Shown here: piece by piece, positions 16,329 through 56,806 of the stretch
Numbering within the stretch: position 1 is the first letter of the stretch
How the letters are laid out: the number at the start of each line of letters is the position of its first letter
NCBI GenBank assembly: GCA_937930175.1
Contig: CALGLP010000011.1
Coordinates: forward strand, 28,776-92,775
Reading direction: 5' to 3'
Length of the DNA: 64,000 bases
DNA from: an uncultured bacterium
Lineage (GTDB): Bacteria; Omnitrophota; Gorgyraeia; Zapsychrales; Aceulaceae
Notes under the pieces: generated by a model
The model's input: the letters and a program-made list of their open reading frames with translations, nothing else
What the model was told of the DNA's origin: nothing
Databases searched by the model: none
Program-made: the position numbers and the translations under genes

Positions 16329-16333
16329 CTCCT

Positions 16334-17380
16334 TTATGCTGAAACGAGATTAATCAATTCCTGCCCAATTTTCTCTAACGCCAACACCTTATCGACACAC
16401 TGACAATCAATCGCGGATTTATTCATCCCAAAAACAACCGAACTCGCCTCATCCTGGGCTAAGGCTTGCCCGCCGCAGCGCTTAATCTGCTTCATCCCTT
16501 CAACGCCATCATGACCCATGCCGGTCATCAAAAGCCCAATGGCCCGCGTCCCATAGCTTTCTGCAACAGACTTAAATAAAACATCTGCCGAAGGAACTAA
16601 AAAAACTTTCTTTTCTGTTTCCTCTCTGAGCTCAATCACGCCCTCGGGAGTAATCGTCATGTGAACATTGTCTGGGGCTAAATACACGTATCCATTCCTT
16701 AAGACATCTCCACTGCCCGGAACCTTGATCGTTAATGGACATATCTGCTGGAGCCATTCGGCCAAACCCTGAATAAATCCAGCCGACATATGCTGAACAA
16801 TCAAGATCCCCGCAGGAAAATCTTTAGGCAATTGCGATAAAAGCACGTGCAGGGCCTGAGGCCCTCCCGTCGAAATCCCGATCGCGACAACACGGCTCAA
16901 GGCCTTGTCGTCAACCCTTCTTTCGCCTTGAAACGAGACAGTCTTCTTGAGTTCCAGAACTTTAGCACTAACGGCTGCTTGACGCATCAAGCGCATCGGC
17001 CGAACACGCGAGGCAATGGTTACTTTTTCAATAAGACTTGCTGAAATCTCTTCGATATTATCACTCACCACAACAAAATCCATGGCTCCAATGGCCAGCG
17101 CCTTAACAACAACCTTAGGATCCATACCGCTGACAACAATAATCGACGTGGGAACTTCTGACATGATCAACTGCGTGGCCTCGAGTCCGTTCATGACCGG
17201 CATATTGATATCGATGGTGATCACATCTGGCTTCAAGATTTTTGCTTTTTCTAAACCTTCTTGGCCATTTTTGGCCAAACCAACGACTTCAACCTTTTCA
17301 TCAGACGTCAGAATTGCCCGCAGGGCTTCCCGCATCAGGGCTGAATCATCAATGATAAGAACGCGTATTTTCTTTTCCAT
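16334..17380 (-). CDS. cheB: Chemotaxis response regulator protein-glutamate methylesterase
   Basis: N-terminal receiver (VLIIDDSALMRE) and C-terminal CheB methylesterase (AIGISTGGPQAL...ILIVQHM). Confidence 0.9.
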   Translation of the reverse strand: MEKKIRVLIIDDSALMREALRAILTSDEKVEVVGLAKNGQEGLEKAKILKPDVITIDINMPVMNGLEATQLIMSEVPTSIIVVSGMDPKVVVKALAIGAMDFVVVSDNIEEISASLIEKVTIASRVRPMRLMRQAAVSAKVLELKKTVSFQGERRVDDKALSRVVAIGISTGGPQALHVLLSQLPKDFPAGILIVQHMSAGFIQGLAEWLQQICPLTIKVPGSGDVLRNGYVYLAPDNVHMTITPEGVIELREETEKKVFLVPSADVLFKSVAESYGTRAIGLLMTGMGHDGVEGMKQIKRCGGQALAQDEASSVVFGMNKSAIDCQCVDKVLALEKIGQELINLVSA

Positions 17381-17397
17381 AAAAATGATATCTTTTT

Positions 17398-17772
17398 CTA
17401 GCTACGAAGACCCAAATATAATTTAATTTTCTTGATAAGAAATTCAGGATACGGCGGCTTCACCACATAATCATCCGCGCCTTGACGGAAGGCCTCGCTG
17501 ATAATCTCCACGTCACTTTTAATGCTCAAAACAACAACAATCGTATTTTTTAAGATTGCATCCTTTTTAATCTTCGCGCAAACCTCAAATCCTGAGATAT
17601 CAGGCAGAATCAAATCAAGGATAATAAGATCCGGCATCATCGCACGGGCTTGCAACAAACCCTCCTTACCAGTCGTGGCCACTTCCGCGACAAGGCCTTC
17701 CGCTTTCAGTAAATCTTTGACGATCTGTGCATCGGTTTTCGAATCTTCAATTAAAAGAATTTTCTTGCTCAT
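17398..17772 (-). CDS. cheY: CheY-like response regulator
   Basis: ILLIEDSKTDAQ...IILDLILPDISG; a single receiver domain. Confidence 0.85.
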   Translation of the reverse strand: MSKKILLIEDSKTDAQIVKDLLKAEGLVAEVATTGKEGLLQARAMMPDLIILDLILPDISGFEVCAKIKKDAILKNTIVVVLSIKSDVEIISEAFRQGADDYVVKPPYPEFLIKKIKLYLGLRS

Positions 17773-17789
17773 AAAAGCTCCCGTTTCGT

Positions 17790-19916
17790 TTAGCCCAACA
17801 ACCGTTCAATGGTTTCTAAAAGACCTTCCGAGGTAAAATCTTTCTTTAAAATATAGGCGTCGGCGCCCACTTCAAGCCCGCGGCGCTTGTCCTCATCGGT
17901 TTCACGTGTCGTTACAATCATAACCGGAATCTCTTTATAAAAAGGAATCTTTCGAAGGCTTGCCACAAAATCAAATCCATCCATGCGCGGCATGAGAACA
18001 TCCGTGATAATCAAATCAAAGCTTTCTTGGTTCGCCCGATCTAAGGCCTCTTTCCCGTCACGCGCAATCACAACCGAAAACCCAGCAGCCTCGAGAATGC
18101 TTTTTTCAAGCATCGCCGTGCTCAAAACATCTTCGGCCAAGAGAACCGTTTTTTTCTTGCCCTTCACTAAAGCTTTTGGGGGCGCGGAAGGTTTTTTGAT
18201 CACAACGCCCTCCGCCGAACGAATCACAGACGCGATATCAAGGATAAGAATAACGCGGCCATTGCCTAAAATCGTGGCTCCGGAAATGTTGCTAACATTT
18301 TTTAAAGGATCGCCAATGGCCTTGCTAATAATATCCTGACGACCAATGAGTTCGTCAACTAAGATGCCAATTCTTTTTTCCACAGACTGAACGACAACCA
18401 CAGGAAGAAATCTTTTCTCGAAAATGCCTTTTCGCGGCAGATTAAAAATATCGCTTAAGCGCACCAATGGCAAAATATGGCCCTTCACGGTAATGGCTTC
18501 CTTGGTTTCTATTGTTTTAATTGCGCTAGGGTCAACGCGCAGGGTTTCCATCACTGTTTCGATCGGAATAGCAAAAATATCTGTGCCCGCGGCAACGAGC
18601 AAGCTTTCCGCAATGGCAAGCGTTAAAGGAAGTCTCAAAAGAAAACTTGTACCCAGTCCTGGCTTTGACTTAACCTCCACCATTCCCTTGTATTCAGCAA
18701 TGTGATCACGTACCACGTCCAACCCAACGCCACGGCCGGAAGTCTCAGAAACTTCATCGGTCGTTGTAAAGCCAGGTGCAAAAAGAATCTGATAAATTTG
18801 ATCATCCACCATATCACTCAAACGCTCTTGGGCGACAAACCCCTGAGCCACAGCCCTTTCTTTGACCTTGTCAATATTCACCCCATGGCCGTCATCAGCA
18901 ACCTCAATCACAACCCGAGAGCCTTCTCTGTATGCGGATAGCGTAATTTTTCCTTCAATAGGTTTTCCCTTTTCTTGGCGCGCTTGCGGCATCTCAATCC
19001 CGTGATCAACAGCGTTACGCAAAAGATGCATGATCGGGTCTTTCATGTGGTCAATAATCGCCTTGTCGATTTGCGTGTCTTCACCATGGATTTCAAACCG
19101 AATTTCCTTGCCCTTGGTGCGCGCTAAGTCACGCATCGCCCGTGAAAAATGATTAAAAAGATAGGAAACCGGTACCAAGCGAATCTTCATGACTTCATCT
19201 TGAAGGCTCTTGCTAAGCCGATCCATATTATTCTTGATCATATTAAAATCTTTGGTAAGGCCTCCCAGGTTTTCATCTAATTCTTTATTACCTTCGACCT
19301 TATCATTAAGACTTTGCACTAATTCATTCAAGCGAATCTTGCCAACAATCATTTCCCCGGTCAAGTTCATCAGCCGATTAAGCTTATCAATATCCACACG
19401 GATGCTTTCTTCAACGGCGGACTGAAGCGCTGAGGATTTTTGCGACACGTCAACAACTTCTTTTTCAATCCCTTGGGATCCTTGCGCAGGCTGCGGCACG
19501 GCCTGAGGGGCCTGACTTGGCGCGTGGGAAAAAAGATTCTTAACCTCTTCACAAAGATTAGAAACCGAAGAAGCTTCAATGCCTTTATCTGACCATGTTA
19601 CTTTGTCATCTAAAAGCGGCTCAATAGCATCCAAACATTTAAATAAAAGATCAACTTGTTCTTTGGAAAGGCTTAGATTTTCCTTGAGAACTTTTTCAAA
19701 AGCATCTTCCATGACATGGGCCAGATCTACAATACGCTTATAGCCCATCATGGTCGCTGAGCCCTTAATCGTATGCGTCTTGCGCATCAAAAGTTCGGCC
19801 AGGCTTCGGTCGTGCGGATTTTTTTCCAATTGCAAAAGCCCTGCACTGGTTTCCTGCAACAGATCCCTGACTTCTGCCTTAAAACTTTCAATATATTTTG
19901 ATCGATCAAACGCCAT
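17790..19916 (-). CDS. cheA: Chemotaxis histidine kinase CheA with C-terminal receiver (CheA-REC hybrid)
   Basis: Hpt (HTIKGSATMMGY), HATPase (GRGVGLDVV), CheW-like domain and a terminal receiver (VLLAEDVLSTAML...IITDVLMPRMDG). Confidence 0.9.
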   Translation of the reverse strand: MAFDRSKYIESFKAEVRDLLQETSAGLLQLEKNPHDRSLAELLMRKTHTIKGSATMMGYKRIVDLAHVMEDAFEKVLKENLSLSKEQVDLLFKCLDAIEPLLDDKVTWSDKGIEASSVSNLCEEVKNLFSHAPSQAPQAVPQPAQGSQGIEKEVVDVSQKSSALQSAVEESIRVDIDKLNRLMNLTGEMIVGKIRLNELVQSLNDKVEGNKELDENLGGLTKDFNMIKNNMDRLSKSLQDEVMKIRLVPVSYLFNHFSRAMRDLARTKGKEIRFEIHGEDTQIDKAIIDHMKDPIMHLLRNAVDHGIEMPQARQEKGKPIEGKITLSAYREGSRVVIEVADDGHGVNIDKVKERAVAQGFVAQERLSDMVDDQIYQILFAPGFTTTDEVSETSGRGVGLDVVRDHIAEYKGMVEVKSKPGLGTSFLLRLPLTLAIAESLLVAAGTDIFAIPIETVMETLRVDPSAIKTIETKEAITVKGHILPLVRLSDIFNLPRKGIFEKRFLPVVVVQSVEKRIGILVDELIGRQDIISKAIGDPLKNVSNISGATILGNGRVILILDIASVIRSAEGVVIKKPSAPPKALVKGKKKTVLLAEDVLSTAMLEKSILEAAGFSVVIARDGKEALDRANQESFDLIITDVLMPRMDGFDFVASLRKIPFYKEIPVMIVTTRETDEDKRRGLEVGADAYILKKDFTSEGLLETIERLLG

Positions 19917-19927
19917 AGCGAACTTCT

Positions 19928-21343
19928 TTATTTGAGCTGATTGGCTAAATGATTAAGGCCTTCCGTTAACTTATTGAGATCTTTAACCGCCTGCTGTGTT
20001 TGCTGAGCCCCTAACACAATTTGTTTCATCGCCTCGTCGATATTCATCATGGCCTCGGAAATTTGTTTGGAACCGGCAATCTGCTGATTAGCACTCATGG
20101 CGATTTCCTTGGAACGTTCCGCGGTTTGCTGAGCCAAGCGCGCTTCATCATCAACACTTTTAAGATTTCCTTCCATGGCCATAACAGAATTCGTCATCTC
20201 ATGCTGGATCAACTCGATCAAGCTGCTGATTTCTTTGGTGGATTTGGCTGTTGAATCAGAAAGCTTTCTAATCTCGTCAGCCACCACCGTAAATCCTCGC
20301 CCCTGGTCGCCAGCACGGGCGGCTTCAATCGAAGCGTTCACAGCCAAGAGATTCGTTTGATCTGCGACATCATCAATCATATCGGTAATCTTTCCGATCT
20401 TCTGGGATTTCTCGCCAAGCGACGACACCATTTGATTGGTTCGACCAAGCGATTCCTTGATTTTCGCCATGCCCGCTAACGCATGGGCCGCCACCTCGGA
20501 AACCTTGCGAATACTTTCCCCTACCTGCTCGGAGGTTGTAGAAAGCTCTTTGGCCGCCGACGTGGTCTCGGCGACAGCTGAGGATTGTTCACGCGCCCCA
20601 GAAGATTGTTCCTGGCTCGCCGCTACAATTTCGGCTGAGGCAGAAGTGATTTGTTGCACAGAATTGATAAGTGTTTTAATCGCCTGCGTGAGAATGCGTA
20701 AAACAAAAAACGCCACAAATGCTCCTAGCACAATGGCGATGAGTAAAAGGATCACCATGAGATTCCTGGTCGTTTCTTCGATGACATGGGCTTTCGCAAC
20801 ATACTCTTCAAAGATTTTATGTCCTTCGCCTCTAATGTTGTTCACAAGAGGTTTGATTAGGGCAGCGGTTTTGACAAAATCGGTCGTGTCCGCTCCCAGC
20901 ACATCATCATTGGCTGTTGGATTTTTTTCCACATCATCAACAGCACTTAAAACCTGGGCAACATAACGATCAAATGTTTCTTCTATCTTTTCGACTTCAA
21001 TTGTTTCTGCTTTCATCCTATCTAGCTGTGCCTTAATCGCCTTGATCCACTGCAAAGCCTTTTTGGCCTCTTCAGCGCTTACTTTAAAACGAGCATTAAT
21101 ATATTCCTCTTTGGCCGCCTCTACGCCTTTGATCGAATACCGTAAAATAAAATCCTTTTCTCCAGTACGGCAACTTAAGAAGGCAACCAAGAGATCTTGG
21201 CTTGCATCGACTAAGGCTGCTCCTTTTTTCTCAGCATCTTCCCAGCTTTGATTAATTTGATTAATATTCATAATGGCAACAGCGCCCAGAGCCAATACGA
21301 TGAACAACATTAAAACAAACCCAATCAAAATTTTCTTTTTCAT
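19928..21343 (-). CDS. Methyl-accepting chemotaxis protein (membrane-anchored, HAMP + MCP signalling domain)
   Basis: Highly conserved MCP core IEAARAGDQGRGFTVVADEIRKLSDSTAKSTKEIS. Confidence 0.9.
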   Translation of the reverse strand: MKKKILIGFVLMLFIVLALGAVAIMNINQINQSWEDAEKKGAALVDASQDLLVAFLSCRTGEKDFILRYSIKGVEAAKEEYINARFKVSAEEAKKALQWIKAIKAQLDRMKAETIEVEKIEETFDRYVAQVLSAVDDVEKNPTANDDVLGADTTDFVKTAALIKPLVNNIRGEGHKIFEEYVAKAHVIEETTRNLMVILLLIAIVLGAFVAFFVLRILTQAIKTLINSVQQITSASAEIVAASQEQSSGAREQSSAVAETTSAAKELSTTSEQVGESIRKVSEVAAHALAGMAKIKESLGRTNQMVSSLGEKSQKIGKITDMIDDVADQTNLLAVNASIEAARAGDQGRGFTVVADEIRKLSDSTAKSTKEISSLIELIQHEMTNSVMAMEGNLKSVDDEARLAQQTAERSKEIAMSANQQIAGSKQISEAMMNIDEAMKQIVLGAQQTQQAVKDLNKLTEGLNHLANQLK

Positions 21344-21390
21344 TCTCTCCTCCTAAAGATTAGATAGATTATTCCCCTCGACGCAAATCC

Positions 21391-21915
21391 TTACCCTTTT
21401 TTTAAATGCTCCATTTCCTCACACGTTAAAATCTTTTTAAGATCTAAAAAAATAAGGATCTCCCCTCCTACCTGTGCCTGGCCCCGCGTGTACTGAGACA
21501 TCTTGGTGCCAAGCGTTGCTAAAGGCGGCTGAATCAAGCGCTCCTCAATATCTATGGCTCCCTTAACCTCATCAACAAGAAGAGCCATCGGCGCTCCCAA
21601 AACATCTGTGACAAGCGCCCAAAGCTCCTTAGGGCGTTCACTAGCATCAAGGGTTAAAAAAGAGCAAAGATCGCATAGCGTGATGACCTCGCCACGTAAA
21701 TTCATAACACCCAGAACAAAGTTGGGCACACCCGGAACATGGGTGACGTGCTCGACCTTAATCACTTCTTTAGCATCCTTGATATCCACACAATACTGTT
21801 CCTGCCCAACGAAAAAGACCAAAACACGCATATACGCTGTCAACGAAATCTCATCGTCATTTTCTAGGTCATCGACTTCAAAAATAATTTTCTTAGAATC
21901 CTCTGTCATGCACAC
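21391..21915 (-). CDS. cheW: CheW-like coupling protein
   Basis: CheW-domain pattern (VVFFVGQEQYCVDI...VMNLRGEVITLCDL). Confidence 0.8.
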   Translation of the reverse strand: MCMTEDSKKIIFEVDDLENDDEISLTAYMRVLVFFVGQEQYCVDIKDAKEVIKVEHVTHVPGVPNFVLGVMNLRGEVITLCDLCSFLTLDASERPKELWALVTDVLGAPMALLVDEVKGAIDIEERLIQPPLATLGTKMSQYTRGQAQVGGEILIFLDLKKILTCEEMEHLKKG

Positions 21916-22376
21916 GCCCTCTTTCGTATCTCGACGCGTTCACGAATATGATCTAAATCAACTTTCGCCTCATGGCTCAAAAGGCTTTGCATATCAATGA
22001 CTAAAAAAATATCATTGCTCTTTCTCAAAACCCCCAGCAAATAGCTGACATTCTTCAAAACGTCATCGGGTGGAGTAATCTGGCTGTCCTCTAGCGTCAA
22101 CACATCTAAAACGCTATCCACGATCACACCCACAAAATAGGTGTCAAGCCTGCAGACAATAATACGACTGGTTTTCGTGACGAAGCCCGCGGACAAAGAA
22201 AATTTTTTCCGTAAATTAATCAAAGGGATAATCTTGCCCCGAAGACTGATAACCCCTTCTACAAAATCCGCTGTCTCTGGGACCGGCGTCGGTGGGCGCA
22301 TGGCAATCACCCGCAAAACTTGATCAATTTTCAAGCCATAATGTTTATCGGCAAGAGTAAAGGTAAGTATTTTCAT
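21906..22376 (-). CDS. cheW: CheW-like coupling protein (second copy)
   Basis: LTFTLADKHYGLKI...VISLRGKIIPLINL; 10-nt overlap with the downstream cheW. Confidence 0.8.
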   Translation of the reverse strand: MKILTFTLADKHYGLKIDQVLRVIAMRPPTPVPETADFVEGVISLRGKIIPLINLRKKFSLSAGFVTKTSRIIVCRLDTYFVGVIVDSVLDVLTLEDSQITPPDDVLKNVSYLLGVLRKSNDIFLVIDMQSLLSHEAKVDLDHIRERVEIRKRACA

Positions 22377-22384
22377 GGACGTGA

Positions 22385-23896
22385 TTATACCTGCTTGAGT
22401 CTTTCTAGGTTATCCCGGCAAACGCTCATCAGCGTGGCTGCGTTGAACCCGCCACTGTAGGCTATTATAGTTGTCGGCTCATATCCTGACAACAGCTTTA
22501 GCGAGTTTCTGTAGGCCCGGATAGCCTCGGATGTCTGCGTTTCGCTTCGATAAACCTGAGCAAGATAGAAATGAGCCAACAAAAATGTCTGATCGAGAAA
22601 AAGAGCCTTGCGCAAGCTTTCTTTGGCCTCGCGCAGCATGTTTTCCTCAAAATAAATGCAGCCAAACAGGTAGTGCGCCGGGGCAAAAAGAGCATTGAGA
22701 CTCAAGGCTTTATGAAGACTTTCTTTGGCTTCGGCCATTTTTCCCTGATTCATAAAAATCTCTGCTTGCATATAAAGCGGGTCGGCAGCTCTTTCATCAA
22801 GACGCTGGGCCTCCTCAAGTAAGGAAAGAGCTTCAGCATATTCCTTAAGATACATGTGCTTGTGCGATTGAAAAAGCAAATCTTCAAGACTTCTTAAGGA
22901 AGCACTCGTTTTTGCAAAAGCCGCCACCTGCGCCAAGGCCTCTTGATGAGAAATTTCTTCAAGGATACTATTGGCATCAAGAGTTTCTTCTTCTGCCACA
23001 GACGTTCTTTGTTGCGTAGAGAACACCTTTTGCATGCCCAAAACTTTCTTCTGATAATAAATAGCTTCTTGGCTACTGATCATCTGAAACTGATCACGCA
23101 TAAAATGCAAACTCTCCGAATAACCAATAAAGAGGTGCCCCTCGTCTAAAAGAGCGTTATAAAACTTGCGCATCACCTTGATCGTTGTTTCCAATTCAAA
23201 ATAAATGACCACATTACGACAAAAAATAATATCAAAACCAAAAGGATAATCGTCTTCCATGAGGTTGAAGAAGCCAAAGCTCACCATGCGCTTTATCTCA
23301 TCGCTAACTTGATAAAAAGATTGCTTGTATTCTCCGGGCTTAACCGTGAAATATTTCTGCAAATAAGGTGCTGCAACGTAGCGCACAGCATTTTTGCTAT
23401 AAAGCCCTTTTTGGGCTTGCCGAAGGGCATTTTCAGAGGCATCCGTGGCTAGAATTTCAATCTCCCAGCCATCAAGGTCACCTAAAACCTCCTTGATCAC
23501 CATCGCAATGGTGTAGGGCTCCTCGCCAGAGGAACACCCCGCGCTCCAAATGCGTAGCTTCGGCTTGGTCCCATCGCGCAAAGCCATTTTTGTTTTTTCT
23601 TCGATTAAAACAGGTAAAACTTTTTCCTTGAGGACTTCAAAGTGAGCTTCATTGCGAAAAAAATACGTGTGGTTGATCGTCAGCAGGTTGAGCAGTTCAC
23701 GAAACTCATCATCTCGCTCATCCGAAGTCGTAAGAAAAGCATAGTAGGAGGCAACAGCGGCCATGCCGCGTATTTTCATGCGCTCAACAATAGCATCGTC
23801 GAGATTCTTAAGGTCATGGTCCTTAAAATACAATCCGCCGCGGCTGCAGACGAAATCCTTGAATTTTATGCGAAGCTCATTGGGGAAAATCATCAA
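22385..23896 (-). CDS. cheR: Chemotaxis methyltransferase CheR with C-terminal TPR repeats (FrzF/WspC-like architecture)
   Basis: SAM-binding LRIWSAGCSSGEEPYTIAM; the C-terminal third has TPR-like repeats (AEAKESLHKALSLNALFAPAHYLFGCIYF...). Confidence 0.85.
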   Translation of the reverse strand: MMIFPNELRIKFKDFVCSRGGLYFKDHDLKNLDDAIVERMKIRGMAAVASYYAFLTTSDERDDEFRELLNLLTINHTYFFRNEAHFEVLKEKVLPVLIEEKTKMALRDGTKPKLRIWSAGCSSGEEPYTIAMVIKEVLGDLDGWEIEILATDASENALRQAQKGLYSKNAVRYVAAPYLQKYFTVKPGEYKQSFYQVSDEIKRMVSFGFFNLMEDDYPFGFDIIFCRNVVIYFELETTIKVMRKFYNALLDEGHLFIGYSESLHFMRDQFQMISSQEAIYYQKKVLGMQKVFSTQQRTSVAEEETLDANSILEEISHQEALAQVAAFAKTSASLRSLEDLLFQSHKHMYLKEYAEALSLLEEAQRLDERAADPLYMQAEIFMNQGKMAEAKESLHKALSLNALFAPAHYLFGCIYFEENMLREAKESLRKALFLDQTFLLAHFYLAQVYRSETQTSEAIRAYRNSLKLLSGYEPTTIIAYSGGFNAATLMSVCRDNLERLKQV

Positions 23897-23919: not shown

Positions 23920-26112
23920 TTAGGAACGCCGCTTGAGCAGCATGCGAATTCGGGCAAGCAACTTTTCGGGATCAAAGGGCTTGCTCACATAATCATCGGC
24001 CCCGGCATCCAGGGCTTCAATTTCGCTAGCGCTATCAGTCTTGGCTGTCAACATCACAACAGGAATGGAAGCCGTTTCTAAAGAATTCTTTATCTTTCGC
24101 GTTGCACTCACCCCATCTAAAATAGGCATCATAATATCCATCATAATAAGATGGGGCTTCTTCTGATACGCAGCTTTGATGCCCTGCTCTCCATCCGCTG
24201 CCTCAAGAACCTCATAGCCTTCTTTAAGCAGTCGTGCCCGCAGAACCTTTCGGATGTCGTCTTCATCATCCACAACAAGAATAGTAAATCGTTTGTTCAG
24301 GGCGCGCTGCAAATCACCTGTAATGGCAGCTGCTTCTTGTTGTTCTTCTGGCGTAGACACCGACGAGACTTCTCTCTCAGGCTCTTTCATTTCTGTGTCT
24401 CTTACATCGCAAACAGTTTCTACCTCTTCAATCGTAGTTAATCCTTCGAGAACCTTACGAATACCAGATTCTGCCAATGATCGCATCCCATTAACACGGG
24501 CCACCTTCAGCATCTCGGCCTGGGGAGCCTTCTGGGCAATAAGCGTACGCAGTTGTTCATCAACTTTAACTATTTCACTAATCACGGTTCGCCCCAAGAA
24601 GCCCGTATAGCAACACCGATCGCATCCCTTGCCAAAAAAGAATTGAGTAATCTTGTTCTGCTGGATAAAAAGCCCAAACTTTTCATAAAGCTCTTGTTTT
24701 TGCTTCTGATCTGTCACCTCCAGCTTGCAATAAGGACAAATCGTACGTACCAAGCGCTGCGCCAAAATCAAGATGACAGACGAGGCAATCAAATAAGGCT
24801 CCAGACCAATATCCATCAGACGAACAACTGTAGCCAAAGCATGATTAGTATGAACCGAAGAAAAAACAAGGTGACCGGTTAACGAAGCGCGAAAAGCAAT
24901 CTCCGCTGTTTCAAGATCACGAATTTCTCCAACTAAAATAACGTTAGGATCTTGACGCAGAATACTTCTTAATCCTGTAGCAAAGGTAACGTCTTTAAAA
25001 GGGTTGACTTGAATTTGATTAATTCCTTGCATCAAATACTCAACGGGATCTTCAATGGTCACAATATTCTTTGTTTCACTCTTAATATGACTTAAGGCTG
25101 CATAGAGTGTTGAAGTTTTCCCTGAGCCCGTAGGCCCTGTCACTAAAATCATACCCTGAGGCTTACGGATCATCTGCTTGATCAAAGCAAGATCATCCTC
25201 GTAAAACCCAAGATGCTCGAGCTCCACCTGAGCCTCTTTTTTATCTAAAAGGCGCAAAACGATTTTCTCGCCAAAAAAGGTAGGAATAATCGAAATGCGC
25301 AAATCAACCTTACGTCCGTTAACCAAAAGACTGCATCGTCCATCTTGGGCTTTATGCGTCTCCGCAATATCCAAATTCGTAAGAATCTTGATGCGGACAC
25401 CCAAATTGGAATACAAACCAATTGGGATTTTCATAATATTGCGCAAATTACCATCAACACGGTAGCGTACCTCAACAAACTTTTCAAAAGGTTCAATATG
25501 AATATCACTAGCGCGAGCACGAATAGCATCATAAAGAATCGCATTGCCCAGCTTCACAACCGGAGAATGGTCCTCAAGTCCGGCTGCAGAAAGACTATGC
25601 ATCTTCTTGGCATCAATAATTTCATTATCTTTGATGATTTCGATCTTCGCCTGATCTGTGACATTTTTCATCAAATCATAGATCGAGTCGTCCAAGAGAT
25701 AATAGCGTTCAATGTAGCTTGCGATCTCACTCTTGCGAACCAACAAAGGCTTGATCTTGGCATGAACCAACATGCTCAAATGATCAAGCGCAATAACATC
25801 CTGAGGGTTACTCATAGCCAGAAGAAGGCTACCGCTTTCATAGCGCAGAGGAAAAACACCGTACTGCTTGGCTTTGTCGCTAGGAATTTCTTTAACAATC
25901 GCTTCATCAATTTTTTCTACGGAAAGGTTAGTTACAGGAATTTTATAAACTTCAGAAGCTGTCTGAATAAGATCTTCTTCACTTAAAAATTCCATTTCTA
26001 CAAGAAGCTCATGTAAAGGCTTTTTAGCTCCGATTTGTTTTATCTTCGCGTCTTCAATGTTATCTTGTGTAATAAGATTTTTCTTTAATAGCACATCCAA
26101 CAATGTGGTCAT
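23920..26112 (-). CDS. GspE/PilB-family secretion/pilus ATPase fused to a C-terminal receiver domain
   Basis: N-terminal T2SSE_N-like domain, Walker A LVTGPTGSGKTST, tetracysteine CPYC...CDRCC, then a receiver ILVVDDEDDIRKV...IMMDIMMPILDG...MLTAKTD...K. Confidence 0.85.
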   Translation of the reverse strand: MTTLLDVLLKKNLITQDNIEDAKIKQIGAKKPLHELLVEMEFLSEEDLIQTASEVYKIPVTNLSVEKIDEAIVKEIPSDKAKQYGVFPLRYESGSLLLAMSNPQDVIALDHLSMLVHAKIKPLLVRKSEIASYIERYYLLDDSIYDLMKNVTDQAKIEIIKDNEIIDAKKMHSLSAAGLEDHSPVVKLGNAILYDAIRARASDIHIEPFEKFVEVRYRVDGNLRNIMKIPIGLYSNLGVRIKILTNLDIAETHKAQDGRCSLLVNGRKVDLRISIIPTFFGEKIVLRLLDKKEAQVELEHLGFYEDDLALIKQMIRKPQGMILVTGPTGSGKTSTLYAALSHIKSETKNIVTIEDPVEYLMQGINQIQVNPFKDVTFATGLRSILRQDPNVILVGEIRDLETAEIAFRASLTGHLVFSSVHTNHALATVVRLMDIGLEPYLIASSVILILAQRLVRTICPYCKLEVTDQKQKQELYEKFGLFIQQNKITQFFFGKGCDRCCYTGFLGRTVISEIVKVDEQLRTLIAQKAPQAEMLKVARVNGMRSLAESGIRKVLEGLTTIEEVETVCDVRDTEMKEPEREVSSVSTPEEQQEAAAITGDLQRALNKRFTILVVDDEDDIRKVLRARLLKEGYEVLEAADGEQGIKAAYQKKPHLIMMDIMMPILDGVSATRKIKNSLETASIPVVMLTAKTDSASEIEALDAGADDYVSKPFDPEKLLARIRMLLKRRS

Positions 26113-26223: not shown

Positions 26224-27720
26224 TTAGACGCGCTGGTTATCTTTCGTTAGTTTTAAAAGTTGCTTGGCAAGCAAGGTTGTTGCTTGATCAGGTAAAAGAC
26301 GCCACTGCCAATTATGGTCAACGGTTCCTGGAATATTCATGCGGTGGGCTTCATCAAGACCTAAAAGGTCCTGCATGGGCAAAATCACTGCATCCGCAAC
26401 AGACCTAAGAGCGAGAGTAACAAGCTGCCAAGAAATATTATCAAGTGTTGGTTCCTGGCCCAAAACGTCCCTCATCTTTTGCTTGATCGTATCTGTCGCT
26501 TCCTGCTTAAACCAGCCCTTAACAGTATTGTTATCATGAGTGCCTGTGTAAACAATGCAGTTTTTGATATGGTTGTGGGGCAAATAAGGATTTTCATCGT
26601 CGCTATCAAAGGCGAAAAGCAAGATTTTCATTCCTGGAAACTTATATTTTTTGATAAGTTCTTTGACATCATCGGTTAAAAAACCGAGATCCTCAGCGAT
26701 AATCGGGAACTCTTTAAAAATTTTAAGCATTTTGGTGAAGAAATCTTTGGCGGGTGCTTCCGCCCAAGACCCATTGATAGCTGTTTCTTCACCCCTAGGA
26801 ACTTGCCAAAAATTAACAAAGCCACGAAAATGATCGACACGAACAATATCAAAAAGGGCTAAATTCTGCGCCAAGCGATCCCTCCACCAAGCATAGCCAG
26901 TTTCTTTCAAGGCATCCCAATCATACACAGGATTGCCCCAAAGTTGCCCGGTCTTGCTAAAATAATCCGGAGGAACTCCCGCTAAGAAAATAAGCCCGCC
27001 TTCTTCATCGAGCTTAAAGATCGAAGGATTCGCCCAAACATCCACACTGTCATGCTGAACATAAATCGGAAGGTCACCAATCACCTCAACGCCCCTAGCT
27101 TTACCATATTTCTTGAGTGCAAACCATTGCTTAAAGAAAACATATTGAAAAAACTTTTGCTTAAGAATAGGCGCCTGAAGCTCTTTTACATATTTTTTAA
27201 CAGCCTCGGGCTTTCTAGCGCGAATATCTTGCGGCCAGCGATACCACGGAGAACCTTGAAAATACTGCTTGAGGGCAATGAAAAGGCTATAATCCTCAAG
27301 CCAAAATTCATTTTTACGACAGAACGCCTTAAAATCAGCGTCCTTGACTAAAAAGCCTTGCGCATGCGCAAAGGCCTGATCCAGAAGGCCCGTCTTATAA
27401 GAAATCACCGCGTGATAATTCACGTGGTCGTCGGGAAAAGAGGGCATCTTCTTTACCGCATCCGCCGGAAGAAAACCATCTTCCACTAACTTCTCGGGAC
27501 TAATAAAAAGAATGTTACTAGCAAACGCAGAACAACTGCTATAAGGACAATTCCCCAAAGCAATATCCGTTGGGTTCAGAGGCAATATCTGCCACTGCGA
27601 CTGCCCAGCATTTTTAAGAAAATCAATAAATTGGTATGCACCTTGCCCCAGATCCCCAATCCCAAAAGGAGATGGTAAGGAGCTAATGTGCAAAAGAACG
27701 CCACTTGTTCGTCGATCCAT
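26224..27720 (-). CDS. malQ: 4-alpha-glucanotransferase (amylomaltase, GH77)
   Basis: N-terminal GVLLHISSLPSPFGIGDLG and GH77-typical length and motifs. Confidence 0.85.
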   Translation of the reverse strand: MDRRTSGVLLHISSLPSPFGIGDLGQGAYQFIDFLKNAGQSQWQILPLNPTDIALGNCPYSSCSAFASNILFISPEKLVEDGFLPADAVKKMPSFPDDHVNYHAVISYKTGLLDQAFAHAQGFLVKDADFKAFCRKNEFWLEDYSLFIALKQYFQGSPWYRWPQDIRARKPEAVKKYVKELQAPILKQKFFQYVFFKQWFALKKYGKARGVEVIGDLPIYVQHDSVDVWANPSIFKLDEEGGLIFLAGVPPDYFSKTGQLWGNPVYDWDALKETGYAWWRDRLAQNLALFDIVRVDHFRGFVNFWQVPRGEETAINGSWAEAPAKDFFTKMLKIFKEFPIIAEDLGFLTDDVKELIKKYKFPGMKILLFAFDSDDENPYLPHNHIKNCIVYTGTHDNNTVKGWFKQEATDTIKQKMRDVLGQEPTLDNISWQLVTLALRSVADAVILPMQDLLGLDEAHRMNIPGTVDHNWQWRLLPDQATTLLAKQLLKLTKDNQRV

Positions 27721-27730
27721 AAAACCTCCT

Positions 27731-30175
27731 TTAAACAGCTACATCTAGAAATTCCGCCAAGAGCTCAAAGGCAGAAACCCATCGCTCACTCTGGGGGTCC
27801 TTTTCTTGCGCTTTTTTCTTTATCTGCGCATAATATTTAAGTTTTAATTCAAAAAAGGTTTTTTGCGCCTTCCATAAATTAACCTGAAAATTTAATGTCT
27901 TTAAAATGTTTAAGAGAGAAACAATATTTTCAATAAAAATCACATTCTCATGATCTCTTCCAAGTTCCTCCATGAGCTTACTTACGCGGGCAGTCGCAAC
28001 AAAGCTTACCCCTTCTTTATCTCGCGAAAAAGACCATCGCTTAAGTTCCCAAGCCAAGACCTGGATACGCTTTAAATTTAATGGTTCCCGCTGGATTTCA
28101 GCGCACATTTCATGGCTTAAAACAAATTCCACGACGGTAGAAAGAACTTTTGGCAAACGTACCGGAAGCTCCTTCTGAAGCTGCATCAAAGGATAATGCT
28201 GCTCATAGATATCCATGAATGACTTTTCAATTTGCTCCATCGTTGCCTTCAAAACCTCATCCAAGATTTTCTGCTGCTCATTGCGGAACAAATGCTGGAT
28301 CGTATAATTTTCATGCCCAAAGTAGCGGTCAATTAAACGGGTTACTTCTGGTATCTTTTTCGCTTCAAAAGCATCCAGAATCTCTTTCTCAGCCTTAGTA
28401 TATTCTGTCAAAGACATGCGCTCAATGCCACGGATCATATTATGATTACCCATATGGAAACCAACAAAAAAAACTGGCGTTTTTTCCAGAGTAATATTCG
28501 AGCGAACCGATCCTCGACCGATGCAAAGCTTTAAACGATTCGCTTCTTTTTTCTTATATTCATCCTTGATAATGTTGTAACAATAAACCTTAGTCTCCTT
28601 GGGATATTCTTCAAACAACGACGATACCGCATAATGCACCCCGACCCTCACCAGATCCACCACCGAAGGACGAACAAGACTTATATAAATATCTTGACCA
28701 TCTTTGTATTCTTCTTCATTGCTATTGGCCTTGGCCAAGATCTCAAGAAAATTCTTTTCCAGATCAATTCCGTCGAGCTCTCCTATAAGCTGAATAACGC
28801 GAGCCGCATACTTAAGAACCTGAACAGGCTCAATACGGGAAAGCTCATCAAAAAACCATCCACAGCTTGTGTACATAAGCTGCATATTGCGCTGCATTTC
28901 CAAAAGCTTCAGAATCTTTATCTTTTCTGCTTCACCCACAGATTTCTGAATCTGCTCGGCCATAAAGAGTCCTATGGTTTTCTCATTGCGCATCAAGATT
29001 ACATCAATATAGGCATTGCGCACAGCCCAAACATCCTTGGCGTACGGGCTCATCTGCTGGATATATGTTTTATTCGCTTCCTCGCTTAGCCAATCAAGAG
29101 ACGCACGCAACGGAGCGCGCCATTTTTGATTCCACTTAGGGTTAGTCCCGAGACAACAGCCACAATCCCCACGCCATCGCTCAATGCCATGGGAGCAACT
29201 CCAAGAGGTATTTTCAAAGATCTGAACTTCTTCTTGCGGAGGAAATTTCTCCAAGTATTCACCATAAATCGTGATCGTCGCCAAATTTTCTGTTTCGATC
29301 TTATGCAGGGCATACGCTAAAGCCATATCGGCAAATTGATGATGATGGCCATAGGTCTCTCCATCGGTTGCGATATGCACCAGTTGTCGCTCCTGACCGT
29401 TATGATAATCAAAACCGCCCAAAAGTCTTCGCGCAAAATCATCTCCACTTTTTAATAATCCTTCAAACGCCACAGAACGCGACATCGGCCCATCATAAAA
29501 AAAGATCACAATGCTTTTTCCTGTTGGAAGTTGACAAAGATATGGCTTTTTAGGATCAATCCTCTGGCCACTGACATCATACCAATCAGAGCTTGTCAAG
29601 GGCTTGACGCTTTTGGCCTGATGCGGGGCTAGAATTGTAAATTTAATCCCGTATTCCGCCATGATGCCAAGGCTCTCTAAATCAACTGCTGTTTCCGCAA
29701 GCCACATCCCTTCAGGTTTTCGTTTAAAACGATACTCAAAATCTCGAATCCCCCAATAAATCTGCGTACGCTTATCTCTGGGGCTAGCCAAAGGCAAAAT
29801 GATATGGTTATAAACCTGCGCGAGGGCTGAGCCATGACCCGAAAACTTCTCCTGGCTAAGCTGATCTGCCTTTAAAATATCCGCGTAAACCTCAGGATCT
29901 TTTCTCTCCATCCAAGACAACAATGTCGGCCCAAAATTAAAACTTATCTTGGCGTAATTATTAACGATCTTAACAATTCTTTTTTGAGCGTTGAGAATGC
30001 GAGCGGCGGCATTACGAGAATAACACTCAGAAGTAATGCGCTCGTTCCAATCATGAAAAGGATATGCCCCGTCTTGGAGCTCAACCTCTTCAAGCCAAGG
30101 ATTTTCCCGAGGGGGTTGATAAAAATGACCGTGGATGCAAACAAATTTCTGCACGAGGACTTCCTTAGGTAACAC
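27731..30175 (-). CDS. Glycoside hydrolase family 57 protein with C-terminal DUF3536-like extension
   Basis: N-terminal CIHGHFYQPPRENPW GH57 signature; 814 aa. Confidence 0.7.
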   Translation of the reverse strand: MLPKEVLVQKFVCIHGHFYQPPRENPWLEEVELQDGAYPFHDWNERITSECYSRNAAARILNAQKRIVKIVNNYAKISFNFGPTLLSWMERKDPEVYADILKADQLSQEKFSGHGSALAQVYNHIILPLASPRDKRTQIYWGIRDFEYRFKRKPEGMWLAETAVDLESLGIMAEYGIKFTILAPHQAKSVKPLTSSDWYDVSGQRIDPKKPYLCQLPTGKSIVIFFYDGPMSRSVAFEGLLKSGDDFARRLLGGFDYHNGQERQLVHIATDGETYGHHHQFADMALAYALHKIETENLATITIYGEYLEKFPPQEEVQIFENTSWSCSHGIERWRGDCGCCLGTNPKWNQKWRAPLRASLDWLSEEANKTYIQQMSPYAKDVWAVRNAYIDVILMRNEKTIGLFMAEQIQKSVGEAEKIKILKLLEMQRNMQLMYTSCGWFFDELSRIEPVQVLKYAARVIQLIGELDGIDLEKNFLEILAKANSNEEEYKDGQDIYISLVRPSVVDLVRVGVHYAVSSLFEEYPKETKVYCYNIIKDEYKKKEANRLKLCIGRGSVRSNITLEKTPVFFVGFHMGNHNMIRGIERMSLTEYTKAEKEILDAFEAKKIPEVTRLIDRYFGHENYTIQHLFRNEQQKILDEVLKATMEQIEKSFMDIYEQHYPLMQLQKELPVRLPKVLSTVVEFVLSHEMCAEIQREPLNLKRIQVLAWELKRWSFSRDKEGVSFVATARVSKLMEELGRDHENVIFIENIVSLLNILKTLNFQVNLWKAQKTFFELKLKYYAQIKKKAQEKDPQSERWVSAFELLAEFLDVAV

Positions 30176-30190
30176 TTTTAACAGCAGCGA

Positions 30191-30496
30191 TTAAAAAACT
30201 TTAAAATCAAATAGTTTCCGAAGCTGTGCGCTAACGCCGCCTGTTGATTTTTCAACTGCCTTACCAGAATAAAGACGACGATAGGCTTCAAGCTCCTTGG
30301 GGACAAGCGCAACATAATCCTCACAATGACGAGAAATGTAGGCAATTTTGTCCTCACGGGCAAGCCAGCCTAGAGCCTGAAGGACCACTTCTTCTTTTTC
30401 TCTCACAAGCTCAGCTAAAGATGAGATTTCAACCTCTTTCTTTTCACCCAAGATACGCCATGTTTTTCCTGCCGCCTCAATAATTTTTGCCTTCAT
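30191..30496 (-). CDS. Small hypothetical protein (possible winged-helix fold)
   Basis: 101 aa with no recognisable catalytic motif. It overlaps the glgB start by 20 nt, which suggests an operon. Confidence 0.3.
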   Translation of the reverse strand: MKAKIIEAAGKTWRILGEKKEVEISSLAELVREKEEVVLQALGWLAREDKIAYISRHCEDYVALVPKELEAYRRLYSGKAVEKSTGGVSAQLRKLFDFKVF

Positions 30497-32537
30497 CTTT
30501 TTTCTCCTGTTTTCTAACTGTATAGTTGGTCACCTCATACACATAGCTAACTTTATTTTCCTCTAAAGCATTCTCTTCGTCAAGAGCCTCAGATACAAAC
30601 TTATCAGTTTCTTTCTTTAAAAAAAGAATGCCTAACGGCGGCAACGTTAACGATAGCGATTGCGCAAATCCGTGTGACTTCACCACCTCTGTTTTCTTGC
30701 CACCAAAATTACCTTGTCCACTCCCACCATATTCTTTGCCGTCACTATTAAGAAGTTCTTTCCACAAACCCTGCGTCGGCACGCCGACACGATAACCAAA
30801 TCGCGTCTCTGGCGTAAAATTACAAATAATCACAATCTTATCGTCAGCTAAATCTCCCTGGCGCATAAAAATAATAATGCTTTTCTGCCAATCACCACCA
30901 TCGATCCATTGAAACCCCGAAGTCTGAAAATCATGCAAGAAAAGCGATGGTTCCTTTTTATATAAACCATTTAAATCTTGTGTCCATTTCTGAACACCCT
31001 GATGCGAAGCATATTGTAACAGATGCCAGTCCAAGCTTTTCTCATGGCTCCATTCAGAGCGCTGAGCAATTTCCCCTCCCATAAAAAGAAGCTTTTTGCC
31101 AGGATGCGCATACATATATCCCAAAAGTAAACGCAAGTTGGCAAACTTCTGCCAATCGTCGCCAGGCATGCGGTTGATGAGGGACCCCTTGCCATGCACC
31201 ACCTCATCATGAGAAAACGAAAGAACAAAATTTTCTGTAAAGGTATAAAGAAAACTAAATGTTAAATCATTATGATGATATTTACGATAAATCGGATCTT
31301 TAGAGAAATACACCAAGACATCATGCATCCACCCCATATTCCATTTCATTCCAAAACCCAATCCCCCGGCATACAAAGGCCGTGAAACTCCCGACCACGC
31401 CGTAGATTCTTCGGCGATCATCTGGACATCGGGAAAACAGGCATAGACGGTTTTATTTAACTCTTTTAAAAACTCAATCGCCTCAATATTTTCTTTTCCT
31501 CCATAACGATTGGGCACCCACTCCCCATCATAACGAGAATAATTGAGATAAAGCATCGAGGCAACCGCGTCAACGCGCAGGCCATCAATATGATATTTGT
31601 CTAACCAAAAAAGAGCGCTCGAGATCAAAAACGCACCTACTTCTTTTCGTCCGTGATCAAAAATATAGCTTTTCCAATCCGGATGAAACCCTTTTTTGGG
31701 ATCCGCATGCTCATAAAGATGCGTGCCATCAAAATAGACAAGCCCGTGGATATCCGAAGGAAAGTGCGATGGAACCCAATCTAAGATGACACCAATCCCG
31801 TTTTGATGCAAAGCATCCACAAGATACATAAAATCTTCCGGCATTCCATACCGCGAGGTTGGCGCGAAATAACCAAGAGTTTGATAACCCCACGAGCCAT
31901 AAAAAGGATGCTCCATCATAGGCAAAAACTCAACATGTGTAAAACCCATGCCGGTAATATATTGAACCAGCTGCTGCGCTGCTTCGCGATAAGTGAGCGA
32001 CCGATTCCCTTCTTCGATCACGCGACGCCATGACCCAAAATGCATTTCATAGGTCGCCATTGGAGCTTTAAGGCTATTAGCCTGATGACGGTTTTTCATC
32101 CATTCCTGATCCGCCCAGGAATACTGGAAATCCCAGACAACGGACGCTGTTTTAGGTGGAAGCTCTGTGTGAAAAGCAAAAGGGTCTGCTTTATCCGCAC
32201 GATAATTATTGTACTTGGAAACAACGTGATATTTATAAACAGTGCCTCGTTCAAGCCCGGGAATAAAACCTTCCCAGAGACCCGAAGAATCCCAACGGAT
32301 GCTCAAGGGGTGAGCTGTCTTGTTCCATTGATTAAAATCACCTAAGACCGAAACGGCCTGGGCGTTGGGAGCCCAAACAGAAAAATAAACGCCTTGCTGG
32401 CCTTCATGGGTTATGACATGCGACCCTAATTTTTCATAAAGTCGATAATGTGTGCCTTCTTTGAACAGATGGGTATCTTGCTCTGTCAACAAGGAAACCC
32501 CATGGATGATTTCACTTTTCTCGGAGTTCATGCCCAA
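30477..32537 (-). CDS. glgB: 1,4-alpha-glucan branching enzyme (GH13)
   Basis: VWAPNAQAVSVLGDFNQWN (CBM48), then GH13 catalytic regions (GFTHVEFLPMMEHPFYGSWGYQ, GIGVILDWVPSHF). Confidence 0.9.
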   Translation of the reverse strand: MGMNSEKSEIIHGVSLLTEQDTHLFKEGTHYRLYEKLGSHVITHEGQQGVYFSVWAPNAQAVSVLGDFNQWNKTAHPLSIRWDSSGLWEGFIPGLERGTVYKYHVVSKYNNYRADKADPFAFHTELPPKTASVVWDFQYSWADQEWMKNRHQANSLKAPMATYEMHFGSWRRVIEEGNRSLTYREAAQQLVQYITGMGFTHVEFLPMMEHPFYGSWGYQTLGYFAPTSRYGMPEDFMYLVDALHQNGIGVILDWVPSHFPSDIHGLVYFDGTHLYEHADPKKGFHPDWKSYIFDHGRKEVGAFLISSALFWLDKYHIDGLRVDAVASMLYLNYSRYDGEWVPNRYGGKENIEAIEFLKELNKTVYACFPDVQMIAEESTAWSGVSRPLYAGGLGFGMKWNMGWMHDVLVYFSKDPIYRKYHHNDLTFSFLYTFTENFVLSFSHDEVVHGKGSLINRMPGDDWQKFANLRLLLGYMYAHPGKKLLFMGGEIAQRSEWSHEKSLDWHLLQYASHQGVQKWTQDLNGLYKKEPSLFLHDFQTSGFQWIDGGDWQKSIIIFMRQGDLADDKIVIICNFTPETRFGYRVGVPTQGLWKELLNSDGKEYGGSGQGNFGGKKTEVVKSHGFAQSLSLTLPPLGILFLKKETDKFVSEALDEENALEENKVSYVYEVTNYTVRKQEKKDEGKNY

Positions 32538-32683
32538 AACAAAAACCTTCTCTCTGTCTTATCTATTGTTATTTCAAGTTGTTGCATCTCTTTTCAAAGA
32601 AGCGTTGCTATTTTATCTAAAATTCTACTCTTTTTCCATGTTATTTTTCGCTAAAAACATATTTATGTTTTTTAAAAAATGTT

Positions 32684-32689
32684 ATAATA
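32684..32689 (+). promoter_or_regulatory. TATAAT -10 element ending 6 nt before the GTG start of the ROK kinase gene; possible leaderless start
   Basis: tgttataat at 32681-32689, GTG at 32696, and no SD. Confidence 0.25.
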
Positions 32690-32695
32690 CGTTTT

Positions 32696-33652: not shown

Positions 33653-33653
33653 T

Positions 33654-47602: not shown

Positions 47603-47753
47603 AAAAACCCTTTCCTTAAAACGTCAACGATCTATCCTTCCCAACAAAAAACTATCTCAAAATATTAAAGATCACTCAAGACTTAAGTTCTAGGAAGTCG
47701 TGGCATCCGCGTTGACAACGCATAACCCTCTTTATCAAATCTTCTCTAGCAGC

Positions 47754-52473: not shown

Positions 52474-52493
52474 GCCCATGCGCACATAAAGAG

Positions 52494-56787: not shown

Positions 56788-56806
56788 GATAACGCTGACA
56801 ATCCTT

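Follow-up and report, generated by a model that had tools for sequence, protein, structure and literature searches.

A PilB-like ATPase fused to a response-regulator receiver domain in uncultured bacterial phyla

Introduction

There is still debate over how signals pass from chemosensory and two-component systems to the motor of type IV pili. In the Tax1 system of Synechocystis, the CheA-REC kinase PixL phosphorylates PixG and PixH (where REC denotes a receiver domain); only phosphorylated PixG binds the ATPase PilB1 and promotes positive phototaxis, and PixH counteracts it (PMC11181946). In Xanthomonas, the orphan REC-REC protein DrdR stimulates the ATPase activity of both PilB and PilT, to which it binds (PMC13507683). 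In the related ATPase MshE, the site for cyclic di-GMP (c-di-GMP) consists of two tandem 24-residue motifs of the form RLGxxLLxxGLLxxxxLxxxLxxQ, and a supplementary table of the same study records the co-occurrence of MshEN with REC (Wang et al. 2016, PMC5013675). Here we describe a gene for a PilB-like ATPase that carries its own receiver, PilB-REC, in a 64,000-nucleotide stretch of DNA from an uncultured bacterium of the Omnitrophota (contig CALGLP010000011.1 of assembly GCA_937930175.1; this whole stretch is referred to as the window). Whereas PilG and PilH of Pseudomonas, PixG and PixH of cyanobacteria, and DrdR of Xanthomonas are free receivers that must find PilB, the receiver here is covalently attached.

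To our knowledge, no member of the Omnitrophota has been isolated. Type IVa pilus genes occur in nearly all Omnitrophota genomes, and these pili have been proposed to serve host-cell attachment and surface motility (PMC10066038); the terms PilB, chemotaxis, and response regulator are absent from that paper, the main genomics paper on the phylum, which does treat type IVa pili. From the comparisons presented below, we consider it modestly probable that the PilB-like extension ATPase is itself a response regulator, with a neighboring sensor kinase phosphorylating D659 of the fused receiver and thereby gating pilus extension.

Results

An intact ATPase core and an intact receiver in one chain

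The PilB-REC gene (positions 23920–26112 of the window, minus strand), an open reading frame with an ATG start, encodes 730 residues that Pfam and NCBIfam models recognize as a PilB-like ATPase with a C-terminal receiver. An initial annotation, made from the sequence alone, had described a GspE/PilB-type ATPase followed after residue ≈600 by a full CheY-like receiver. Every motif that it quoted lies at the expected position of the open reading frame, and Pfam returns the architecture MshEN (residues 56–142, 9.5e-17), T2SSE, and Response_reg. The T2SSE match (PF00437; residues 180–565, 2e-129) scores 431.9 bits against a cutoff of 24.9 over profile positions 3–369 of 370 and thus exceeds the gathering threshold across the full ATPase core, and the Response_reg match (PF00072; residues 611–723, 3.1e-30) scores 105.1 bits against a gathering cutoff of 30.2 over positions 1–111 of 111, the full length of the profile, which places the C-terminal region in the receiver family. 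As to type, that description held in part: the ATPase is better called PilB-like (see below), and the receiver, complete as claimed, scores highest not against CheY but against PleD, PhoB/PhoP, and OmpR-type receivers, both in NCBIfam and among solved structures.

Four segments can be delimited along the chain, all encoded on the minus strand. An N-terminal MshEN-like region with a degenerate c-di-GMP motif (residues 1–150; 25663–26112) is followed by the T2SSE ATPase core (residues 180–565; 24418–25575), as bounded by Pfam, the conserved motifs, and matches to PilB in the PDB, then by an acidic, Ser/Pro-rich linker (residues ≈568–609; 24286–24411), and finally by the receiver (residues 611–723; 23944–24282), assigned from Pfam, its catalytic residues, and its (βα)5 fold. 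The core contains the Walker A motif GPTGSGKT at residues 326–333 (25114–25137), the Asp box EDPVEY at 354–359, the Walker B motif DPNVILVGEIRD at 388–399, the His box HTN at 421–423, and a zinc tetracysteine motif in which C459, C462, C497, and C500 derive from CPYC (459–462) and CDRCC (497–501). The receiver contains VVDDEDD (613–619), MMDIMMP (657–663), MLTAKTD (687–693), and SKPF (710–713), with D615, D616, D659, T689, K711, and Y708 aligning to D12, D13, D57, T87, K109, and Y106 of Escherichia coli CheY; the codon of the phospho-acceptor D659 lies at 24136–24138.

Both parts appear to be under constraint in 118 full-length homologues. Walker A residues G326, P327, G331, K332, and T333 are found in 118/118 and the other three positions in 116 to 117; the Asp box, Walker B, and His box are invariant or near-invariant; and the four zinc cysteines are present in every homologue, with C501 of CDRCC not conserved. 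In the receiver, D616, D659, and T689 are likewise invariant, D615 and K711 are kept in 117, and Y708 in 116. This pattern extends to 87 divergent clusters of fusions (defined below), 83 of which retain the acceptor Asp, 84 the Lys, and 84 the Thr/Ser. A pseudo-receiver was ruled out, with every catalytic residue conserved. The fusion is not an assembly artefact, because a protein identical to PilB-REC (P0001) is encoded in three independent assemblies, NCBI GCA_036722365.1 and two Logan assemblies; a frameshift was dismissed on the same grounds, with identity in at least three independent assemblies and the architecture in at least 120 distinct protein clusters. PilB-REC thus appears to be a working ATPase joined to a working-looking receiver, neither a chance match nor a decayed remnant. 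The apparent intactness of both domains counts in favor of regulation through the receiver, and phosphorylation-dependent control, as the initial annotation supposed, is plausible in that it fits the strict conservation of the phospho-acceptor and a neighboring kinase that is almost constant (see below).

An AlphaFold2 monomer model built from 68 family members has a mean predicted local distance difference test score (pLDDT) of 84 and a predicted template modeling score of 0.78. The N-terminal domain, the ATPase, and the (βα)5 receiver are modeled with confidence (receiver pLDDT ≈90), and confidence is low at residues 164–179 and 572–606, with pLDDT below 50 at 572–587, 589–591, and 597–606 of the linker. 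From this low confidence at 572–606, the receiver is predicted to be tethered via a disordered linker of ≈40 residues. Linkers in the 87 fusion clusters are 21 to 334 residues long (median 62), and a linker that is predicted to be disordered and varies in length fits a flexible tether, which also speaks for the proposed regulation. A search against solved structures returned no chain that combines this ATPase type with a receiver.

The fusion is widespread in uncultured phyla

We searched a database of 5.8 billion proteins and examined the best 120 matches to PilB-REC, which range from 49 to 100% identity. T2SSE followed by Response_reg is present in 120/120 and MshEN in 119 of these; most of the named sources belong to Candidatus Omnitrophota and others to Elusimicrobia and Firestonebacteria, and all 120 collapse to one representative at 50% identity. 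Of the best 150 representatives at 50% identity, at least 87 carry a receiver after the ATPase and six a receiver before it; the query itself holds a receiver, so the ranking favors fusions, and the count of 87 sets a minimum for diversity and is no measure of frequency. Elusimicrobia and candidate division WOR-3 are among the sources named for fusion clusters at greater distance. These counts overturn the suggestion in the initial annotation that the architecture is rare. It is common, yet we found no description or test of a PilB-REC fusion in the open-access literature, the nearest report being the mention of MshEN-REC co-occurrence cited above.

A taxonomic scan of a sample of species-representative genomes with universal Walker A and Walker B patterns, which gives no frequency, extends this range. 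The matches listed include a fusion in a "Deltaproteobacteria" metagenome-assembled genome (L010), a fusion in a Frankiaceae metagenome-assembled genome whose receiver is only weakly similar (L048), and a Rubrobacter protein of the order MshEN-MshEN-REC-ATPase, with the receiver ahead of the ATPase (L044, 1727–5002). The distribution suggests that receiver–PilB fusions arose more than once and in both orientations. PilB-like proteins with an N-terminal receiver, several of ≈700 residues, were also noted as P0177, P0208, P0224, P0245, P0256, P0258, and P0260. PilB-REC is a cis-fused variant of the known control of PilB by receivers, widespread in uncultured phyla and apparently unstudied.

A sensor kinase and a stand-alone receiver accompany PilB-REC

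In the window, PilB-REC heads a string of 13 further genes on the same strand with gaps of at most 68 nt; operon structure is taken from this spacing. Toward the end of the string lie a 1104-residue sensor histidine kinase (12595–15909) with dCache, four PAS, HisKA, and HATPase_c domains in Pfam, orthologues of which are found near PilB-REC in other genomes, and two single-domain receivers, RECb (12204–12572), assigned by orthology across three phyla, and RECc (11828–12190), identified by Pfam and by orthologues in L089, L094, L007, and L095. The string is closed by a protein with two PG_binding_1 repeats (11220–11759; Pfam), a putative peptidoglycan-binding protein that occupies the same end position in L089, L094, L007, and L095.

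Eleven other PilB-REC neighborhoods were read beside the window, and in eight of the nine informative contexts a sensor histidine kinase or Hpt protein is no more than two genes away from PilB-REC. In four Omnitrophota loci, gene order matches that of the window to either side of PilB-REC, whose product is 81% (L094), 75% (L089/L090), 60% (L007), and 58% (L095) identical to that of the window. The first three share the order glycogen genes (where the contig reaches), PilB-REC, dCache-PAS kinase, REC, REC, and peptidoglycan-binding protein, lack che genes, and place the kinase orthologue directly beside PilB-REC (L089, L094, and L007), whereas L095 reproduces the order of the window exactly, with eight che genes included and the kinase orthologue after them. 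Among loci that do not share this synteny, the arrangement is CHASE-PAS kinase, REC, and PilB-REC in Firestonebacteria (L004); PAS kinase, REC, and PilB-REC in Elusimicrobia (L005); REC, PilB-REC, hybrid kinase, and then further receivers and kinases in L006; and hybrid kinase, REC-REC, and PilB-REC in L091; L008 and L009 each have a kinase no more than three genes downstream. In L093 (9675–18363 of an 8.16-Mb contig), a 101-residue Hpt protein precedes PilB-REC and a 2036-residue kinase with Ser/Thr-kinase, AAA_16, GAF, and PAS domains follows it. The genome of L093 is much larger, and its arrangement suggests that beyond the small-genome phyla the receiver is supplied by a phosphorelay.

RECb proteins form an orthologous group that spans Omnitrophota, Firestonebacteria, and Elusimicrobia at 43 to 69% identity (L089, L007, L004, L005, and L006). 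The fused receivers form a group of their own (48–86% identity), and within the window RECb is the closest paralogue of the fused receiver (45%). Because both the neighborhoods and RECb orthology keep the three together, the conserved unit appears to be sensor kinase, RECb, and PilB-REC, with the che block an optional module nested within it.

An extra stand-alone receiver directly upstream of PilB-REC was also observed in L007 (9633–9998), L006 (9622–9999), and L095 (3453–3827), separated from it by 1 to 2 nt in L006 and L007 and overlapping it by 8 nt in L095. These receivers form a further group (46% identity between L006 and L007) and are missing from the window, L089, and L094.

Two candidate phosphodonors

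Two kinases in the string could phosphorylate the fused receiver, the HisKA sensor kinase and a CheA-REC hybrid. The α1 helix of a receiver is the chief determinant of kinase–receiver pairing. In the window, α1 reads EDDIRKVLRARLLK in the fused receiver, EPDIVKVVVFRLKK in RECb, and EESIQKVLKARLEN in RECc, as compared with SKTDAQIVKDLLKA in CheY1, SPLVLNIFKDTLSD in CheY2, VLSTAMLEKSILEA in CheA-REC, and SALMREALRAILTS in the receiver of CheB. In this helix, the fused receiver is close to RECb and RECc and unlike the che receivers, and the same split is found in L095. This similarity, together with the adjacency of the genes, makes the HisKA sensor kinase a more probable direct donor than CheA.

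The strongest competing explanation, which we nevertheless regard as unlikely, is that CheA-REC is the true donor and that the locus specifies a Pil-Chp-like system with a PilG-type regulator fused to the motor, i.e., chemotactic control of twitching. Much about the window invites it, since PilB-REC opens a closely spaced run of genes on one strand with the CheR start codon 26 nt beyond its stop, the order PilB-REC, che block, and kinase is kept in L095 at 45 to 65% identity in parallel with the divergence of the flanks, and Pil-Chp and Tax1 are themselves che-type systems that act on PilB. Against it, che genes are absent near PilB-REC in L089, L094, L007, L004 to L006, L008, L009, and L091 to L093, and because most family members thus have none nearby, the fusion must work without CheA. 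The α1 helix of the fused receiver, moreover, differs from those of CheY1, CheY2, CheA-REC, and CheB-REC in both che-containing lineages, and the che block has two CheY-like outputs of its own.

An old and dispensable che block

The che block comprises eight genes, all on the minus strand, at 15960–23896 of the window and 6002–13922 of L095, fixed between PilB-REC and the sensor kinase. It opens with a CheR methyltransferase with C-terminal TPR repeats (22385–23896; Pfam CheR 8.9e-59), followed by two CheW proteins (21906–22376, Pfam 6.9e-32; and 21391–21915, 5.5e-33) and a transmembrane methyl-accepting chemotaxis protein (19928–21343; Pfam MCPsignal 1.8e-37), in whose sequence two transmembrane segments and a periplasmic region of ≈170 residues can be read. 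The CheA-REC hybrid kinase (17790–19916) has Hpt, dimerization, HATPase, CheW, and REC domains in Pfam, and at least 120 Omnitrophota homologues are among the matches listed, none above 63% identity. CheY1 (17398–17772) and CheY2 (15960–16328), the latter the last gene of the block, are CheY-like single receivers (Pfam Response_reg) with a che-type α1 helix, and between them lies the CheB methylesterase (16334–17380; REC and CheB_methylest by Pfam).

The block is cleanly absent from three interleaved relatives, L089, L094, and L007, a pattern that might indicate recent insertion into the window lineage. This was dropped, with the L095 block in the same place and diverged to a degree like its flanks: between the window and L095, che proteins are 45 to 65% identical and flanking proteins 55 to 70%. 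Because these divergences are similar, the block is probably about as old as the split of the two lineages, and its absence from the three relatives is most readily explained by clean loss on repeated occasions, with site-specific transfer the less likely account. The G+C content of the block is 0.451 versus 0.427 to 0.434 in the flanks. DNA alignment of the block boundaries with the block-free loci revealed no repeat or scar and was uninformative. For this organism, the junction of CheY2 and the sensor kinase is seen in the window alone, as the NCBI contig ends inside cheA, and L095 supports it independently.

Which machine the ATPase serves

As the window carries no pilus genes of its own, homology and the evidence of other genomes are our guide to the machine that PilB-REC would power. 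Among NCBIfam models, PilB (TIGR02538) scores highest and aligns end to end (595.3 bits; residues 4–567 to profile positions 2–561 of 564). Full-length PilB structures (5zfr, 5tsg, and 3jc8) match the same residues at 426 to 455 bits (E 1e-126 to 1e-135), and GspE structures score lower by about 70 bits, at ≈381. Judged by these scores, the ATPase is nearer to PilB of type IVa pili than to GspE; we use "PilB-like" and leave the exact subfamily open. Its family also touches pilus genes elsewhere. In L005 (Elusimicrobia), the order is PilB-REC, an unknown gene, and then, ≈640 bp downstream of PilB-REC, a type IV prepilin that starts with the canonical leader MKLLNNKAFTIVELMVVIVIIGILAGG; in L091, a faint ComGC-like match lies near PilB-REC. 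An Omnitrophota operon (L013, 9986–14401) encodes as separate genes REC, REC, a 571-residue PilB without receiver, PilC, and a pilin, and its second receiver best matches the fused receiver; this operon is a split counterpart of the fusion.

The alternative that the ATPase drives another type IV filament machine, such as the pseudopilus of a type II secretion system or a competence or adhesion pilus, with the receiver regulating secretion or uptake, is improbable in our estimation. The GspE model does come close to the PilB model (562 versus 595 bits, neither at its equivalog cutoff), automatic annotations of relatives vary among PilB, GspE, and TadA, clusters resembling type II secretion systems sit beside giant genes in Omnitrophota, and the match in L091 is to ComGC. 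However, the full-length match, N-terminal region included, goes to PilB structures and the PilB model, a canonical prepilin adjoins the fusion gene in L005, and genes for GspC/D/F/L/M are adjacent to none of the sampled family members.

A degenerate c-di-GMP motif

At the positions of R9, G11, G18, L29, R38, G40, G47, L58, and Q61 of MshE, PilB-REC has T, L, N, K, P, H, E, A, and V, respectively. The tandem c-di-GMP motif is not recognizable in its MshEN-like region, and residues other than Arg and Gly occupy the corresponding positions throughout the PilB-REC family, which probably binds no c-di-GMP.

Other features of the window

A scan of 11 to 27 kb gave 23 promoter-like sites versus 24.6 in shuffled sequence and 14 terminator-like sites versus 16.3, i.e., no excess of either; the 111-nt gap upstream of PilB-REC contains one weak promoter-like site (26196–26169, minus strand). 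Upstream of PilB-REC, region 26224–39434 encodes glycogen metabolism (GlgB, GH57, GH77/MalQ, and a ROK kinase) and polyphosphate metabolism (PPK1, PPX, CHAD, and a metallophosphoesterase-PPX). The order glycogen genes then PilB-REC is kept in L089, L007, and L095; in L089 (8511–10004), the end of the GH77 gene runs 4 nt into PilB-REC, and in L006 (6972–9455) a glycogen phosphorylase gene lies upstream of REC-PilB-REC. This adjacency may reflect co-regulation of carbon storage and pili or mere synteny.

Further along the window, a stretch at 44586–57874 with a G+C content of 0.36 to 0.40, whose plus strand shows a pronounced positive AT skew, carries minus-strand genes for polytopic membrane proteins. 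They include a tandem pair of modules, each with a TPR protein and a YfhO-like protein with 13 transmembrane segments (paralogues 30% and 36% identical), two paralogues of ≈700 residues (38% identity) with 15 to 16 transmembrane-like segments and no Pfam match, and a pair of small membrane proteins (174 and 175 residues) with no match. A family 2 glycosyltransferase gene lies just past the stretch (57878–58618), which is probably a surface-glycan island.

Discussion

Domain order, its conservation, the gene neighborhoods, and the degenerate motif are direct observations; which kinase donates the phosphoryl group, how the ATPase responds, and what the stand-alone receivers do are inferred from the comparisons above, which suggest the following mechanism. 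The neighboring sensor kinase, with its dCache, four PAS, HisKA, and HATPase domains, would phosphorylate D659, and the phosphorylated receiver would alter ATPase activity, the state of the hexamer, or engagement of the pilus platform, such that environmental signals would gate pilus extension directly without a diffusible intermediate. RECb and RECc would probably be competitors for phosphoryl groups and serve as sinks or antagonists in the manner of PixH and PilH, and the che block, where kept, would be a second input into the same circuit, one capable of adaptation. We speculate that, as PhoB/OmpR/PleD-type receivers dimerize on phosphorylation, pairing between the receivers of neighboring protomers might stabilize or strain the hexamer.

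That the receiver is instead a phosphate sink for the kinase–RECb/RECc pathway, a scaffold, or a localization tag (compare FrzS and RomR of Myxococcus) on an ATPase insensitive to phosphorylation could be argued from the several single-domain receivers in the same operon that probably share the kinase, from the long, variable, and putatively disordered linker, which gives no sign of a fixed regulatory interface, and from polar-targeting receiver domains known in pilus systems, but we find it improbable, given that a pure sink or tag gives no reason for the motor fusions of at least 87 divergent clusters, kept beside stand-alone receivers, that the aromatic switch Y708 (116/118) is typical of receivers that change conformation, and that free receivers that bind PilB do change its function.

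Several observations weigh against our preferred reading, in which the ATPase is itself the phosphorylated response regulator. With respect to the motor, PilB-REC at 595.3 bits does not reach the PilB equivalog cutoff of 675.65, nor does the GspE model (TIGR02533) at 561.9 bits reach its own cutoff of 630.25, and genes for PilC, PilM–Q, PilT, a secretin, or a pilin are found nowhere in the 64-kb window. With respect to the donor, one neighborhood, L092, is alone in having no adjacent kinase, and the assignment consists of adjacency plus similarity in one helix, with CheA-REC in the same operon. The effect of phosphorylation may be activation, inhibition, or localization, and the AlphaFold2 monomer, which shows the receiver tethered by its linker, does not reveal the seat of the receiver on the hexamer. 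Finally, Wang et al. caution that perfect conservation of the c-di-GMP motif may be unnecessary for binding (PMC5013675).

A wider proposal, which we put forward tentatively and hold somewhat short of probable, is that in Omnitrophota and several neighboring uncultured phyla the extension motor has turned into the response regulator of a dedicated sensor-kinase circuit and receiver phosphorylation replaces c-di-GMP as the on/off input of PilB, with single-domain receivers as antagonists and the che array as a cassette that is gained and lost. If this is true, ultra-small and possibly host-attached bacteria would steer pilus extension via the shortest known signaling path, and the fusion would be a "Rosetta stone" indicating that receiver–PilB contact is ancestral to Pil-Chp and Tax1-type control. 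PilB-REC offers a simple system, with one kinase, one motor, and one aspartate, and raises the questions of how a phospho-receiver acts on the hexamer of PilB and whether it takes the place of control by c-di-GMP; presence and absence of the che block set up a natural comparison between lineages that receive chemosensory input and lineages that do not. The fusion is also of interest for the biology of Omnitrophota, in which type IVa pili have been proposed for host attachment and movement (PMC10066038).

Among described systems, PilB itself, from Geobacter metallireducens (5tsg/5tsh/6olj), Geobacter sulfurreducens (5zfr), and Myxococcus xanthus (3jc8), is homologous to PilB-REC across residues 4–567, and both have an MshEN-like N terminus, Walker A, Asp box, Walker B, His box, and a tetracysteine zinc motif. 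Unlike these structures, PilB-REC has an extra C-terminal receiver on a predicted flexible linker and a degenerate c-di-GMP motif, and its gene in the window adjoins signaling genes rather than pilC or pilM–Q. MshE of Vibrio cholerae (5HTL; PMC5013675) shares the N-terminal domain family and the overall ATPase family; in contrast to MshE, R9, G11, L29, R38, G40, L58, and Q61 are replaced throughout the PilB-REC family, a pattern like that of the non-binder XpsE.

As regards signaling, Pil-Chp of Pseudomonas (ChpA, PilG, PilH, PilI, PilJ, PilK, and ChpB) likewise ties a che-like set to control of the pilus motor. The CheA of the window, however, has one Hpt hit and a C-terminal REC, as opposed to the multiple Hpt domains of the ChpA type, and is encoded with a CheR that bears TPR repeats and with two CheW proteins; unlike Pil-Chp, the che block is dispensable in most relatives. 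Tax1 is similar in directing a phosphorylated receiver to the extension ATPase, in having a second, antagonist or sink receiver, and in a CheA with C-terminal REC, but its receiver is a separate PATAN-REC protein that acts in trans, whereas that of PilB-REC is fused, lacks PATAN, and is accompanied by a conserved kinase of the HisKA type, not CheA. DrdR is the closest biochemical precedent for control of PilB by a receiver; it acts in trans, as an orphan with no assigned kinase, and on PilT as well, whereas the receiver of PilB-REC lies in cis on the motor and is encoded beside a kinase.

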